DNA of 62,869 bases, the filler included, from Octopus bimaculoides (Eukaryota), in assembly GCF_001194135.2 (NCBI RefSeq). It is 7 parts of 7 records of this genome, joined end to end, with 100 filler letters (N's around TTAATTAATTAA, not from the genome) between each part and the next. Parts side by side here need not be neighbours in the genome. Positions count along the whole stretch, not along the records: positions 1 to 30,084 come from NC_068983.1; positions 30,185 to 40,229 come from NC_068984.1; positions 40,330 to 46,417 come from NC_068982.1; positions 46,518 to 50,299 come from NC_068997.1; positions 50,400 to 57,315 come from NC_069000.1; positions 57,416 to 59,466 come from NC_069007.1; positions 59,567 to 62,869 come from NC_069005.1. One strand, written 5' to 3'. Every line of letters starts with the position of its first letter. Positions within the stretch are counted from its first letter, which is position 1. Below the pieces are notes generated by a model. That model searched no databases. It saw only the letters and a list, made by a program, of their open reading frames with translations, and was not told the DNA's origin. The position numbers and the translations under genes are program-made. Of this stretch, positions 2,071-61,046 are shown piece after piece.

Positions 2071-2199
2071 TTATTTACATTATTTTCATTTGACGGATAT
2101 TTGTCCTGATGAAGGCTGGAGGGTATACCAGCCGAAACGTTGTGTTAACAACAAACAAGATGAGGTCAAATATCCGTCATATGTAAATAATGTAAATAA
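2071..2199 (+). mobile_element. Short fold-back element (probable Penelope pLTR relic) enclosing a hammerhead motif
   Basis: Arms 2071-2107 and ~2162-2199 are reverse complements (TGACGGATATTTG/CAAATATCCGTCA perfect over 13 bp; ~37 bp with 3 mismatches) and enclose a hammerhead core. The PLE assignment is inference. Confidence 0.6.
2101..2151 (+). ncRNA. Type I hammerhead ribozyme-like motif
   Basis: CTGATGA 2106-2112, extra A, stem II GGCTGG/CCAGCC with loop AGGGTATA, GAAA 2134-2137, C-[GTTGT]-GT with T17 at 2146, stem I TTGT/ACAA with a C.A mismatch next to the core. Confidence 0.7.
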
Positions 2200-2466
2200 G
2201 GTAGAAACTATGAAATAAAAAATTAAGAATATGACAACAGAAACACTTCCTCATTCATGATAAATGTTGTAGAGTTTCAGCAAGTGAGAATTGTAGATTT
2301 GCAAACGTTTCCACCATAGAGTTTTGATATAGCACTTATTTTTGTTTTCGTTAGCGATTTACATTTTTGTGGAAGTTTCTGTAAAGAAAAGAAAATCGCT
2401 TTTTACGTTTATGAATTTGCTTTGTAAGATTCCGGATGTGAAAGAGATATTGTCATACTTCGGCTT

Positions 2467-2701
2467 GGTCATTTTTTTCTTGCCAAATAAAACACACATA
2501 CTATATATTCGTTCGTCACACGTGTTTTTCTTCCTGTTCTGTTTAGAGGAAGCGGACGAAACATGTGGATGGAAGAGTCGCTGAAGAGGTCACAGATGTG
2601 TGACGAAAAAATTCCAAACGATGGACATAAGATAAAATAAGAACAATAATAAACGAGTGAATATATAATACGTATGTTTATTTGGCAAGAAAAAAATGGC
2701 C
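2467..2701 (+). mobile_element. Second fold-back mini-element with a degenerate hammerhead core
   Basis: Left arm GGTCATTTTTTTCTTGCCAAATAAA...TATATATTC and right arm GAATATATA...TTTATTTGGCAAGAAAAAAATGGCC are ~45 bp inverted repeats; TTCGTCACAC/GTGTGACGAA also inverted. Confidence 0.55.
2581..2614 (+). ncRNA. Degenerate hammerhead-like core
   Basis: CTGAAGA-G-GTCACA-GATG-TGTGAC-GAAA: exact core nucleotides with a perfect 6-bp stem II; stems I and III are poorly formed. Confidence 0.5.
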
Positions 2702-2769
2702 ATCATGAAATATAACAATAGAATTGCTTTTGATATGCTAATAAAAACATATCTATATCTATCTATCTA

Positions 2770-2838
<69 letters not shown>

Positions 2839-3225
2839 TACAGTTTTAGTATAATATTAAAATATTAGTACAGAAGTATTACGAAACCTAACGGCTGCCT
2901 TATCAAATATATTCGAACTGGCCTTTTTACCTATTAGGTCTGTCTGTTTCGCTTCTAGAGTGACATACTCAATTATTCTCGTAGATGTTGCAAATAAGCC
3001 ACCATTATTAGTGCTTTTGTTGCAGCTGTTATCAGTATTGCTCCAGCTGTCATTGCACTTATTGTCGATGTTCTAGTGGCTGTCGTTGTGTACTAACGCT
3101 TTGTTTCTTTGTTAGCATCGGCTCTATAATCTTAATTGCCGACGCATTTCTCTTTTATTACTTCTGATGATGTTATTGTTGATGGTGGTCATCGTAAAGG
3201 TATTGCTGTTTTTGGTTTTGTTATT

Positions 3226-3519
3226 GCCGCATGGTTCAGTGGTTAGAGCGTCGGGCTTACAATCCTGAGGTAGTGAATTTGATTCCGAGACCAGGCTGTG
3301 TGTTGTGTTTTTGAGCAAGACGCTTTATTTCACGTCGCTCCAGTTCACTCAGGTGTAGAAATGAGTTGTGACATCACTGGTGCCAAGCTATATCATCTTT
3401 TGATTTTCCCTTGGATAACATCGGTAACGTGGAGAGGGGAGACTGGTATGCATGGGTAACTGCTGGTCTTCCATAAACAACTTTGCCCGACTTGTGCCAC
3501 GGAGGGGAACTTTCTAGGT
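3226..3519 (+). mobile_element. tRNA-headed SINE, family C (local label)
   Basis: A-box-like TGGTTCAGTGGTTAG and degenerate B-box; the body (GTAGAAATGAGTTG...TTCCCTTGGATAAC...GGAGGG.AACTTTCTA) recurs at 59.8 kb. Confidence 0.75.
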
Positions 3520-4158
3520 TATTAATAGCCATTAATGACTTAGGTCCATGTTCATTAATGATCTAAGGGGGTCTTTTTATTTCCAAAACTTAACTGGATA
3601 CATTGTTGTTATTGTTGTTGTTGTTGTTGTTGTTGTTTACACTGCAGTTGATGCAACCACTTCTCTTACAATGAAGCAAAATGGGTGGCGGTGATCGTGT
3701 TTACACTGTTAGTTTGTACTTGGAACGTGTGGTGAGAAAGTGATTTTGGTTATCATAAAGGTGAGTTTCGCTTCGATTTCTAGCTTCTTTCGCCATCCAT
3801 TTTCTCTCGATATTTCATCTCCACCAATAGATGTCATAGAGGAAATTTTTGATTTGCTTAAAATAAGGGTACACCAGTTTTTTTCTTTTCTACAAGAATA
3901 TTTTCGGTCTCTTTTACGGTCCGGAAAAAAGATGGCCATATCCCTAAAGTAGAAAAACTAGTTAATTTAGAAGTATGATTTGTAAACTGACGTGACTAAA
4001 TGCCGTATAGAATATAGTGTGGAATTCCTATATATGCTTCTCTCCACAGCCACGACAGCAGCAGCCAGAACGACAATATCAACAACACCGACAACAACAA
4101 CAAACCTCACAAAAACTCAATCACACATACACATTATGTATGTATGTATGTATGTATG

Positions 4159-4224
<66 letters not shown>

Positions 4225-4551
4225 AGAAAGTTGGTATGTGAAAGCACGTGGTTGGATGTATAAAAGATAATAAGAGTGAAAAAACAACAGAAGGCTTGTG
4301 TTACATGGTTAAAGTATATATTTAAATTATGTCAGAAAAGTGTTAGAAAAATGTTATAAAAATGTTATAAAATCTTTTTGGTATCTCCCCTATACCGGAA
4401 GAAATCCCTAATTNNNNNNNNNNNNNNNNNNNNNNNNNNNNNNNNNNNNNNNNNNNNNNNNNNNNNNNNNNNNNNNNNNNNNNNNNNNNNNNNNNNNNNN
4501 NNNNNNNNNNNNNNNNNNNNNNNNNNNNTATATATATATATATATATCCCG

Positions 4552-59418: not shown

Positions 59419-59466
<48 letters not shown>

Positions 59467-59759
59467 NNNNNNNNNNNNNNNNNNNNNNNNNNNNNNNNNN
59501 NNNNNNNNNNTTAATTAATTAANNNNNNNNNNNNNNNNNNNNNNNNNNNNNNNNNNNNNNNNNNNNTACTACTACTATCTCTCTCTCTCTCTCTACCTCT
59601 CGTTGCTCACTTTTATTCTACTTCCTCCCTTCCTTTCCCTCTGCTACTCTTTCTCTTCATACAGCCTTGGTCACGTGTGTGCGGCTGCTATTTCTTTTCG
59701 TTCTTGGAATCACCAAGCTCGCACGTACTTCTTTGCCCCTCCTGTACGTGCTTCACAGC

Positions 59760-59952
59760 GTTCGAGACATACACACTTCACGTCTGGCTGTAGAAATGAG
59801 TTGCGCCGTATCGGCCCCTTTGCCTTTCCCTTGGATAACACTGGTGGCGTGGAGAGTGGAGGCCGGTATGCATGGTCGACTGCTGGCCTTCCACAAACAA
59901 CCTTGCCCAGACTTGTGCCTCACGGAGGGTAACTTTCTACGTGCAATCCCAT
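59760..59952 (+). mobile_element. SINE family C body
   Basis: Aligns to ~3350-3519. Confidence 0.75.
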
Positions 59953-59954
59953 AT

Positions 59955-60192
59955 ATGCAGTCATATATGGTCTTTAAAAGATAAATGTGTCAGTCACAAC
60001 ATCTATTGGAAGACCTTAGCCAAGTTTAAACCTTACACCAGCGGCAGTGAAAGGTGCGGTCTATATGATATGAAAAGATGGCTCATCTGGAAAGGCAGCT
60101 TAGACCCCGCCACATGTCTAAATTCAAAGACTGAACTTTTCAGTTCATGTCCACATGTGGCCAAATATTTACTACTTTTTTGGTCCTCCTGA
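59955..60192 (+). pseudogene. Penelope-like element endonuclease C-terminal region
   Basis: SHIWSLKDK..IYWKTLAKFKPYTSGSERCGL..K..I..CLNSKTELFSSCPHVAKYLL fits the IWxLK..W..PY..C.LC..LN.R.E..C.H..K.LL tail seen in marine-invertebrate PLEs (recalled pattern). Confidence 0.7.
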
Positions 60193-60400
60193 GTTTACTG
60201 ATAAGACTTGCTTTCTGTATTGTATCTATGTATAGGCTTTTTACCTCGCTATACTTTTTACTTAGATTTCTTATATTTTTTTTAAAATATTTTTACTGAT
60301 AGGACTTGCTGATAGGACTGTACTGATAGGATTTGCTTTCTATATTATGTCTATGTATAAGTTTTTTATCCTTCTATACTTTTTACATGGATTTTTTAAA

Positions 60401-60444
<44 letters not shown>

Positions 60445-60972
60445 CATAATTATGAAGTTAATGTTTTGTATTTTTTCCACACATTTTTCTGTTTTCTCCC
60501 GTCCACACTGTTTTTTCCGTGTGCGGGTACGTGCGTATATAGATGTATGTGCGTGCATGTGAAAATATGCGCATATTAGACGCGTTATAACCTTATAGCT
60601 TTCACACATTTTCTTCTGTTTTTGCTTTTAGCACTATACATTTTTTTTGCGTGCGTGTGTATGGGTGCGGGGTTGTTGTGTGCGTGTGAGTGTGGGTGTG
60701 TATGCGGGTATATATATGTATATGTACGTATATGTATAGTTTTTGGCGAGTATGTGGGTGAGCATGTGTGTGTTTCAAGCGAGGGTGGTTTAGTATATAC
60801 ATATAAGCGAATGTACAGATTGGTGCGCTTACGCGAACACTATAGACTTTTGTATTCCCTTACTTTTACCCCTCCCCTTACTTAGCGGTCTATTAGCTCT
60901 TTTGTCTTTATGACGGTCACTCACACAGTAATTTCCCTTTGTTTAACGGTCATTTTTCACAGGAATTTTCAA

Positions 60973-61046
60973 TGGCCGGATAACTGAAGAGATGGCGGCG
61001 TGGGCTCCCACCCCGGCATCCGAAACACGGAGTTTTATCATGGCTA
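60973..61046 (+). ncRNA. Type I hammerhead ribozyme, best formed in the window
   Basis: Stem I GATAA/TTATC extended by TGGCC/GGCTA; CTGAAGA 60984-60990; 14-position stem II with 12 pairs; one extra C; GAAA 61022-61025; C-[ACGGA]-GT; predicted cleavage after T61034 (GUU). Confidence 0.8.

Follow-up and report, generated by a model that had tools for sequence, protein, structure and literature searches.

The window, a stretch of 62,869 nucleotides of Octopus bimaculoides DNA, contains five motifs that are very probably minimal type I hammerheads, likely belonging to the 3′-terminal pseudo-LTRs of four families of Penelope-like retroelements (PLEs), with the insertions that carry them likely truncated and mostly inactive. 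The layout of the motifs is that of the published min-HHR consensus (PMC4209133), comprising an extra base after A9, a G10.1-C11.1 pair, a palindromic ACGU, a stem I of 3-5 bp and a U-rich 5′ flank. This layout and the PLE protein remnants bear out the initial annotation, which had proposed PLE-type minimal hammerheads of four families. For families 1, 2 and 3/4, to which no ORF is tied, a PLE origin is suggested by the motif layout together with the insertion structure.

A scan of the window sequence located all five CUGNNGA...GAAA motifs, with cores starting at 2106 (+), 2581 (+), 20822 (-), 46627 (+) and 60984 (+) for motifs 1 to 5, respectively. In a strict scan, stem II of motifs 1-4 is clean after one unpaired base, with 6, 6, 4 and 4 bp, respectively, while motif 5 was missed and recovered by a relaxed scan; the claim that each core has a properly paired stem II thus holds for motifs 1-4, and for motif 5 with a one-base imbalance. 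In motifs 1 and 2, stem II is flanked by CUGANGA and GAAA and an additional base follows A9, motif 5 fits this pattern with one bulge, and motifs 3 and 4 depart from CUGANGA by a U at core position 6 replacing the conserved A. Helix III is a minimal palindrome with a non-G at position 17, being ACGU in motifs 1, 3 and 4 and a near-palindrome in motif 5; it is broken in copy 2 and becomes self-complementary once the family letters are used. A stem I of 3-5 bp is present in three of the five copies (motifs 3, 4 and 5) and absent from copies 1 and 2, and when family letters are introduced family 1 fits and family 2 probably has 3 bp, its letters being unphased. The five cores had been described as complete or near-complete: all are in place and above chance level, but motifs 1 and 2 are incomplete in the window copy, motif 1 lacking stem I and motif 2 being decayed. 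No second copies of motifs 1, 2 and 5 were identified within the window. Minimum-energy folding of dimers, a poor test for hammerheads, gave the active conformation for no motif.

Motifs 3 and 4 belong to a single family. Copy A (20698-20895, minus strand, ~200 bp) ends at an assembly gap and holds motif 3 (20827-20791, minus strand), which comprises a 5-bp stem I, the core CUGUUGA, a 4-bp stem II, ACGU and U17. Copy B (46556-46751, plus strand) lies between (TA)n runs and holds motif 4 (46622-46658, plus strand), which is as motif 3 except for C17. The copies, 26 kb apart in the window and on opposite strands, display 91% identity over 199 bases and 95% over the 3′ 134. Both have the same first and last bases, a pattern equally compatible with a small discrete element and with truncation. 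Family 3/4 might therefore be a separate ~200 bp non-autonomous element, moved into (TA)n by PLE proteins, with a variant hammerhead that processes its own RNA in a retrozyme- or SINE-like manner. The shared 5′ and 3′ boundaries of two copies that both adjoin TA-rich sequence are consistent with this alternative, as are the absence of an RT or EN remnant upstream of copy A in an HMM search and the identity of stems I and II in both copies although N17 differs. It is unlikely, however: the definition of a retrozyme requires complete hammerheads in tandem units, of which there are none in the window, copy B lies downstream of an RT remnant in the same orientation (with a gap between them), only two copies were seen, and the predicted effect of U6 is to favour an inactive rod fold. 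It is similarly doubtful, and rather improbable, that family 3/4 is a high-copy, ORF-less, 200-bp (TA)n-targeting element with a fixed U6 that cleaves as a dimer or on a trigger, which would make it a new conditional ribozyme variant throughout octopus transcripts. A6C, a change related to U6, moves hammerhead activity from Mg2+ to Mn2+ (PMC7151607). Exact-pattern scans for family 3/4 and for family 1 gave no match in metagenome contigs and prokaryote genome contigs.

Motif 1 resides in a short PLE-type insertion, element 1 (2036-2204, plus strand, boundaries approximate), in which an inverted 3′ end (~2036-2107) is joined to a 5′-truncated direct copy (2105-~2203). The arms (2071-2110 and 2160-2199) are 90% identical, and the inverted arm exceeds the direct arm in length, as with a 30-40 bp PLE tail. 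In DNA reads aligned to 1950-2740, depth reached millions inside element 1 against 40-45 on its flanks, with loose ends at 2105 and at 2191-2203. Motif 1 (2106-2141, plus strand) displays the core CUGAUGA, an extra A, a 6-bp stem II, GAAA, a palindromic ACGU helix III and U17, while the window copy has no 5′ strand for stem I. The loose end before 2105 is common to 224 and 278 DNA contigs and to 2060 and 1680 RNA reads, and its last letters, together with C2105, pair with 2142-2146 to form a 5-bp stem I. The reads thus show that the junction of element 1 removed the 5′ strand of stem I; a new stem I made by the fold-back was rejected on fold prediction and reads. The candidate target-site duplication of element 1 (left 2025-2035, right 2205-2215, plus strand) is identical at 10 of 11 positions, a score equalled at 2 of 300 control places, with search windows picked after the repeat had been seen.

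A second fold-back insertion, element 2 (2404-2721, plus strand), is delineated in DNA reads by its depth profile and by a loose end at 2573. Its inverted arm (2448-2516) matches 2653-2720 at 81%, and the direct copy starts at ~2573. The arms diverge in their inner part, for which a single template offers no simple explanation. Motif 2 (2581-2614, plus strand) retains the core CUGAAGA, a 6-bp stem II and GAAA, with helix III and stem I decayed; other copies of the family carry G at 2609, T at 2611 and G at 2617 in ~90% or more of DNA depth. The candidate target-site duplication (left 2394-2403, right 2722-2731, plus strand) is 9/10 identical, and 4 of 300 control places score equally high in windows chosen post hoc. 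An additional hammerhead considered at 2530-2570 has no core, the sequence belonging to the inverted arm of element 2. No two-sided covariation could be recovered among the read alignments listed for 1950-2740.

Read depth and single-copy flanks show that both fold-backs are single insertions of very abundant families. In each, a 5′-truncated copy is joined to a repeat of its own 3′ end in inverted orientation, which is the published structure of Penelope insertions and not that of a retrozyme. Like the octopus units, non-LTR retrozymes (PMC7229834; bioRxiv 10.64898/2026.07.22.740005) are small, lack ORFs, contain a type I hammerhead and are considered derivatives of PLE pseudo-LTRs. They differ in that retrozymes occur as tandem repeats, arranged head to tail, whose hammerheads are complete, and have circular RNAs, whereas the octopus units are single and two of them are fold-backs in which the hammerhead is broken. 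No tandem copy of any motif, and hence no array of at least two head-to-tail units with complete hammerheads, was found within the window, although the gaps adjoining copies 3 and 4 could hide one. Given the broken hammerheads, the lack of tandem units and the truncated-PLE-plus-inverted-3′-copy structure, the proposal that the fold-backs are retrozyme-like non-autonomous units is not supported.

It is very improbable that the fold-backs were themselves amplified, as hairpin retrozymes or MITE-like units whose arms provide a new stem I and whose ribozyme cuts at the GUC at 2165-2167. The hairpins are predicted to be strong (-60 and -92 kcal/mol), the GUC immediately precedes the 3′ arm of element 1, and reads hold other fold-back junctions of family 1. 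The GUC is, however, a mutation private to the window copy, T2166 being A in ~98% of depth; the main family form runs upstream at 2105 with a different sequence, the flanks are single-copy, the fold-back ties up the core in pairing, with three unpaired bases before CUGA, and the structure is that published for inverted 5′-truncated PLE copies. In two RNA runs of unspecified library strandedness, both strands of families 1 and 2 are equally covered without end pile-ups, and no RNA reads map to the unique flanks of elements 1 and 2, which is a weak test. A look-up for RNA records with 1900-2740 listed none, which counts neither for nor against. To that extent the suggestion that the motifs could process host or element transcripts finds no support. 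The cut ends of the hammerhead of PAc, a PLE of Anolis, were likewise unseen in RNA-seq (PMC11167929).

PLE protein remnants are present at two places. The first (45942-46418, plus strand) comprises 159 codons of an RT, probably of the Penelope/Poseidon type, contains one stop codon and is cut by a scaffold gap. Of 250 candidate relatives, 223 matched at E ≤ 0.001, with best identities of 76-79%, and tblastn and HMM searches also identified the RT. In the Penelope/Poseidon clade the RT precedes a GIY-YIG EN lacking a Zn-finger linker; the long relatives end in a GIY-YIG-like domain, read by eye. Pfam returned RVT_1 only (E 0.22) and left the remnant without a name, and comparison with viral contigs gave one weak match of 39 residues. 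The Poseidon-like domain order of the relatives is shared with Penelope/Poseidon PLEs such as PAc (PMC11167929), and PAc-type PLEs likewise have AT-rich targets and a tail at one end; in contrast to these elements, the window holds just the RT remnant with its stop, and a hammerhead of its own is not established. Between the remnant and motif 4 lie an assembly gap (46418-46517) and a (TA)n run, and the ORF lacks at least 567 bases over a nominal distance of 138 bases. The initial annotation had two motifs following PLE ORF remnants: both remnants are PLE proteins, but the link from the RT to motif 4 is unsupported because the gap and the (TA)n run intervene.

The second remnant (59944-60192, plus strand) is the C-terminal tail of a Hydra-clade PLE endonuclease and ends at a stop codon. 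An exhaustive search gave 433 relatives at E ≤ 0.001, while a word-indexed search gave 0 of 5 candidates. The relatives present a C-terminal GIY-YIG with CxCX5C in the linker and CxxC/CxH, the motifs given for the Hydra clade (PMC8557442 section 11). In the window the CxH is intact and the CxxC partly decayed, and the rest of the EN is absent, as is the RT part, for which RWK and DKT motifs characterise the Hydra clade. Pfam detected GIY-YIG in one of 11 relatives (E 0.035) and left the remnant unnamed. Motif 5 (60979-61039, plus strand) displays a 5-bp stem I, the core CUGAAGA, a long stem II with one bulge, GAAA, a 9-base near-palindromic helix III and U17, and its element ends ~35 bases beyond the motif, at (TA)n. 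The same helix III layout is seen in Hydra PLEs (Craig et al. 2021, PMC8557442 File S2), where the hammerhead lies ~30-35 bases from the 3′ end and the target is (TA)n. From their sequences, the EN tail and motif 5 fit the Hydra clade. A spacer of ~790 bases that includes a (TA)n run separates the stop codon from motif 5, and the two may therefore stem from separate insertions; in Hydra-1_Obim the corresponding spacer is ~125 bases, and comparison by eye places motif 5 and the EN tail in a family other than Hydra-1_Obim.

The scans also set the level expected by chance. Seven cores with a stem II of at least 4 bp were observed against a mean of 1.06 and a maximum of 4 in 100 dinucleotide shuffles; four of the seven are among the five motifs, and the other three (44398+, 44287- and 37223-) are without stem I and look chance-like. 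Three complete minimal hammerheads (motifs 3, 4 and 5) scored at least 14, compared with a mean of 0.05 and a maximum of 1 in 40 shuffles. A candidate at 47131 (-) was discarded, having no GAAA and a score at shuffle level. Rfam returned 9 matches around motifs 1-2, 1 around motif 4 and 0 around motif 5, none of them a hammerhead, so that a canonical type I hammerhead in the sense of the Rfam models was not found at these places; for the whole window 150 of 222 matches were listed, and all those listed are microsatellite hairpins. Repeat output for the window was dominated by microsatellites. Although the silence of the Rfam hammerhead models and the three chance-like cores of the loose scan could favour chance matches in AT-rich repetitive DNA, this explanation is refuted by the shuffle comparison, by the family letters, which rebuild the missing helices of motifs 1 and 2, and by the nearby PLE proteins.

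The proposed origin of the copies is as follows. The PLE protein would introduce a nick into AT-rich or (TA)n DNA and begin reverse transcription close to the 3′ end of the element RNA. Synthesis would mostly end prematurely, so that most copies retain just the last 100-250 bases, hammerhead included, as is established for PLEs and inferred for the octopus copies. The fold-backs at 2.1 and 2.5 kb would arise when a template switch appended the same 3′ end once more, in inverted orientation. In full tandem elements, by analogy with published work on other PLEs, two hammerheads could pair through the palindromic helix III and support weak dimer cutting. The isolated octopus copies have no nearby partner, and little or no cutting is predicted for them.

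The PLE-hammerhead arrangement is already described, in Octopus too, and the window adds further relic copies. In metazoan PLE pseudo-LTRs (Cervera and De la Pena 2014, PMC4209133), the min-HHR are type I with an unpaired base after A9, a helix III that is no more than a palindrome and a short stem I, and several families occur per genome, mostly as dispersed single copies with some opposite-strand pairs, all as observed here. The molluscs in that study are Lottia and Crassostrea, and "octopus" is absent from its two searchable supplements. The suggestion that cephalopod diversity may be uncatalogued stands only in part: PMC8557442 File S2 includes a Hydra PLE of Octopus bimaculoides with its hammerhead annotated, but five short probes from the window motifs were not found there. 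Very-high-copy octopus families would supply deep alignments for a selection test on PLE hammerheads; mutating one such hammerhead had no effect on insertion in vitro (PMC11167929). The sole odd point is the U at core position 6 in both family 3/4 copies, where all 56 motifs of Fig. S3 in PMC4209133 have A6, and if U6 proves fixed in the core throughout the family, this would offer a natural test of the importance of cleavage.

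The five hammerhead motifs of the initial annotation are all present, at 2106(+), 2581(+), 20822(-), 46627(+) and 60984(+), and belong to four sequence families. Scanning for CUGNNGA...GAAA with a stem II of at least 4 bp returned 7 sites (mean of 1.06 in 100 shuffles), four of which are motifs 1 to 4. A fuller descriptor, in which both stems I and II and a helix III able to pair with itself were mandatory, retrieved motifs 3, 4 and 5 at a score of at least 14, whereas 40 shuffles averaged 0.05 such sites; it also returned one weak site. The cores had been termed complete or near-complete, which is true of motifs 3, 4 and 5, while motifs 1 and 2 are without stem I and fail the fuller descriptor. 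An Rfam scan around motifs 1, 2, 4 and 5 gave no hammerhead match, as would be expected for minimal forms. Overall, the window likely holds several Penelope-like retroelement (PLE) families as relic copies of known kind, and one unexplained core variant.

The stretch 1950-2740 was compared, at 80% likeness, with two sets of DNA contigs, from organisms A and B, and with two sets of RNA reads from organism A (~6% of each run); base differences are among the 40 of 107 difference rows listed. Motif 1 lies in element 1, a fold-back insertion at 2036-2204 whose inverted arm extends ~35 bases beyond the direct arm. Summed DNA depth over motif 1 is 4.6-7.1 million against 40-45 on the flanks; depth is not copy number, but at this level the family is probably very abundant, with copies on the scale of tens of thousands or beyond. 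Other copies diverge from the window sequence at 2105, sharing one upstream loose end common to 224 and 278 DNA contigs and to 2060 and 1680 RNA reads. This end terminates in GACA, which with C2105 pairs to 2142-2146 and restores a 5-bp stem I, and the family thus carries a complete minimal hammerhead. In the window copy the 5' strand of stem I was lost at the junction, where the 3' end of the same family is attached in inverted orientation. GUC at 2165-2167, a conceivable cut site within the fold-back, is private to the window copy (A in ~98% of depth). An 11-base direct repeat with one mismatch brackets the element; 2 of 300 control places score equally high, the windows having been chosen after inspection. 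Section 6 of PMC8557442 describes PLE insertions built in just this way: they are truncated at the 5' end, lie next to an inverted copy that is likewise 5'-truncated, and bear a tail of 30-40 bp on one side. The fold-back insertions may have arisen by target-primed reverse transcription of PLE RNA, an early stop and then a template switch.

Element 2 (2404-2721), which holds motif 2, is built like element 1, with arms 81% alike, and is flanked by a 10-base repeat in which one position differs; equally high scores occur at 4 of 300 control places. The inner parts of its arms do not align, which the proposed origin does not fully explain. DNA depth over motif 2 reaches 250,000, with a common loose end before 2573. 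In other copies positions 2609, 2611 and 2617 read G, T and G, each in ~90% or more of DNA depth; with these letters and C17, six bases of helix III would be self-complementary and a 3-bp stem I would become possible, the letters being unphased and 2579 and 2616 variable. Judged by its letters, the window copy is decayed. At G2605 of GAAA, A is seen in 13-15% of DNA depth and in 45-60% of RNA reads; the substitution is of CpG type and suggestive of neutral decay. A single contig from organism B spans 2181-2597 with 17 differing letters, and the insertion therefore likely predates the A/B split.

Of 12.9 million records in one RNA run, 6928 fell on 1950-2740, just 12 of these with an identity of at least 99%; the other run gave 5762 of 12.0 million, with just 4 at that level. 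Both strands of the element 1 and 2 families are about equally represented, and no reads fell on the unique flanks in either run. The matches, mostly diverged and absent from those flanks, thus indicate that the families appear inside other transcripts; transcription of the locus itself was not seen in the two runs (~6% each). Transcript processing by the hammerheads, as had been proposed, found no support, since neither RNA run shows a pile-up of molecule starts or ends within 1950-2740, a weak test given fragmented cDNA and unknown strandedness. This agrees with an Anolis PLE, for which PMC11167929 reports no reads ending at the cut site; its hammerhead mutants inserted in vitro all the same. 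Position 2081 is joined to 2150 in 65 and 47 RNA reads (runs X21 and X22), whereas neither DNA contig set lists such a joint. Probably it comes from another, shorter fold-back copy within a transcribed region, or from reverse transcriptase jumping over the hairpin.

Motifs 3 and 4 lie in two ~200-bp copies of one unit, at 20698-20895(-) and 46556-46751(+). The copies lie 26 kb from each other on opposite strands, share 91% identity and have the same start and end; the second is flanked on both sides by (TA)n runs. Both motifs are complete minimal hammerheads but for U at core position 6, whereas each of the 56 motifs of Fig. S3 in PMC4209133 and every core of File S2 in PMC8557442 has A6. Judged by title, no description of a CUGUUGA or A6U hammerhead was found among the papers listed, although the most extensive survey of such variants (Lunse et al. 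2017) may hold one. A natural A6C variant is reported as slow in Mg2+ and better in Mn2+ (PMC7151607). In a predicted rod fold, U6 makes pairing between the core and the GAAAC strand possible, so that loss of function would be the simpler reading.

The Penelope/Poseidon-type reverse transcriptase remnant upstream of motif 4 (45942-46418, +) is, on sequence grounds, genuine; among its close relatives the only one with a name comes from Octopus sinensis (a protein, 80% over 68% of the query), which points to an octopus-like host. Its proposed tie to motif 4 is only possible: the remnant is cut off by a gap when 567 bases or more of reading frame are still missing, against 138 nominal bases, and the gap is perhaps longer than written. 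Within the window, neither reverse transcriptase nor endonuclease was found upstream of the motif 3 copy. Just upstream of the remnant lies a second Mariner-like remnant (44836-45695; inverted repeats 44836-45082 and 45418-45695, 76%), and a 312-codon open frame at 42511-43449(+) is, by its motifs, presumably Mariner-transposase-like. A 155-bp SINE-like repeat has at least six copies in the window (9375-9535, 22431-22591, 23603-23756, 40335-40492, 46757-46914 and 58805-58971), one starting right after the motif 4 copy (46751).

Upstream of motif 5, the endonuclease tail at 59944-60192(+) has 433 relatives, and these carry the CxCX5C linker and CxxC/CxH motifs, by section 11 of PMC8557442 the defining marks of endonucleases of the Hydra clade. 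According to PMC8557442, helix III of Hydra hammerheads is typically a 9-base near-palindrome, and the hammerhead typically sits ~30 bases from an end bounded by (TA)n; motif 5 shows both features. The tail does precede motif 5, as annotated, but the 790-base spacer from its stop codon, with internal (TA)n, leaves some doubt that the two are one insertion. The supplement of PMC8557442 annotates a hammerhead in Hydra-1_Obim of Octopus bimaculoides; a cephalopod PLE hammerhead is thus already in print, and the suggestion of uncatalogued diversity is borne out in part at most, the motif 5 family differing from Hydra-1_Obim when compared by eye. Directly after the endonuclease stop codon is an 89-base tandem duplication (60196-60284 and 60321-60409, 81%). 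A second, far more decayed Hydra-type endonuclease remnant (37232-37570, +; profile E 1.4e-4) has no hammerhead found downstream.

The suggestion that the fold-backs are retrozyme-like is not supported, none being organised in tandem in the window. Solo copies would be inactive; for PLE minimal hammerheads, PMC4209133 reports that monomers did not cut and dimers cut weakly. PLEs are described as abundant in octopuses (PMC13282606, PMC8967140), the main text of PMC13282606 making no mention of hammerheads or ribozymes, and giant squid has 235 Rfam hammerhead hits (PMC6962438). No survey of octopus hammerheads was found among the papers listed, judged by title, and Repbase/Dfam may already hold the window's families.

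With a GC content of 32% over all letters (6084 of them N), the window is AT-rich, and it abounds in (TA)n, further microsatellites and scaffold gaps; no host gene was conspicuous among its 161 long reading frames, most being microsatellite or gap artefacts. Twelve fixed letters with 44 N on either side recur at 46418-46517 and six similar places, so that the gaps are assembly placeholders rather than true lengths. Open frames at 17304-17663(-) and 62158-62697(-) we take to resemble the C-terminal end of restriction-like-endonuclease LINEs. Further palindromic or fold-back stretches, without hammerhead cores, lie at 9957-10089, 5347-5523 and 36401-36475.
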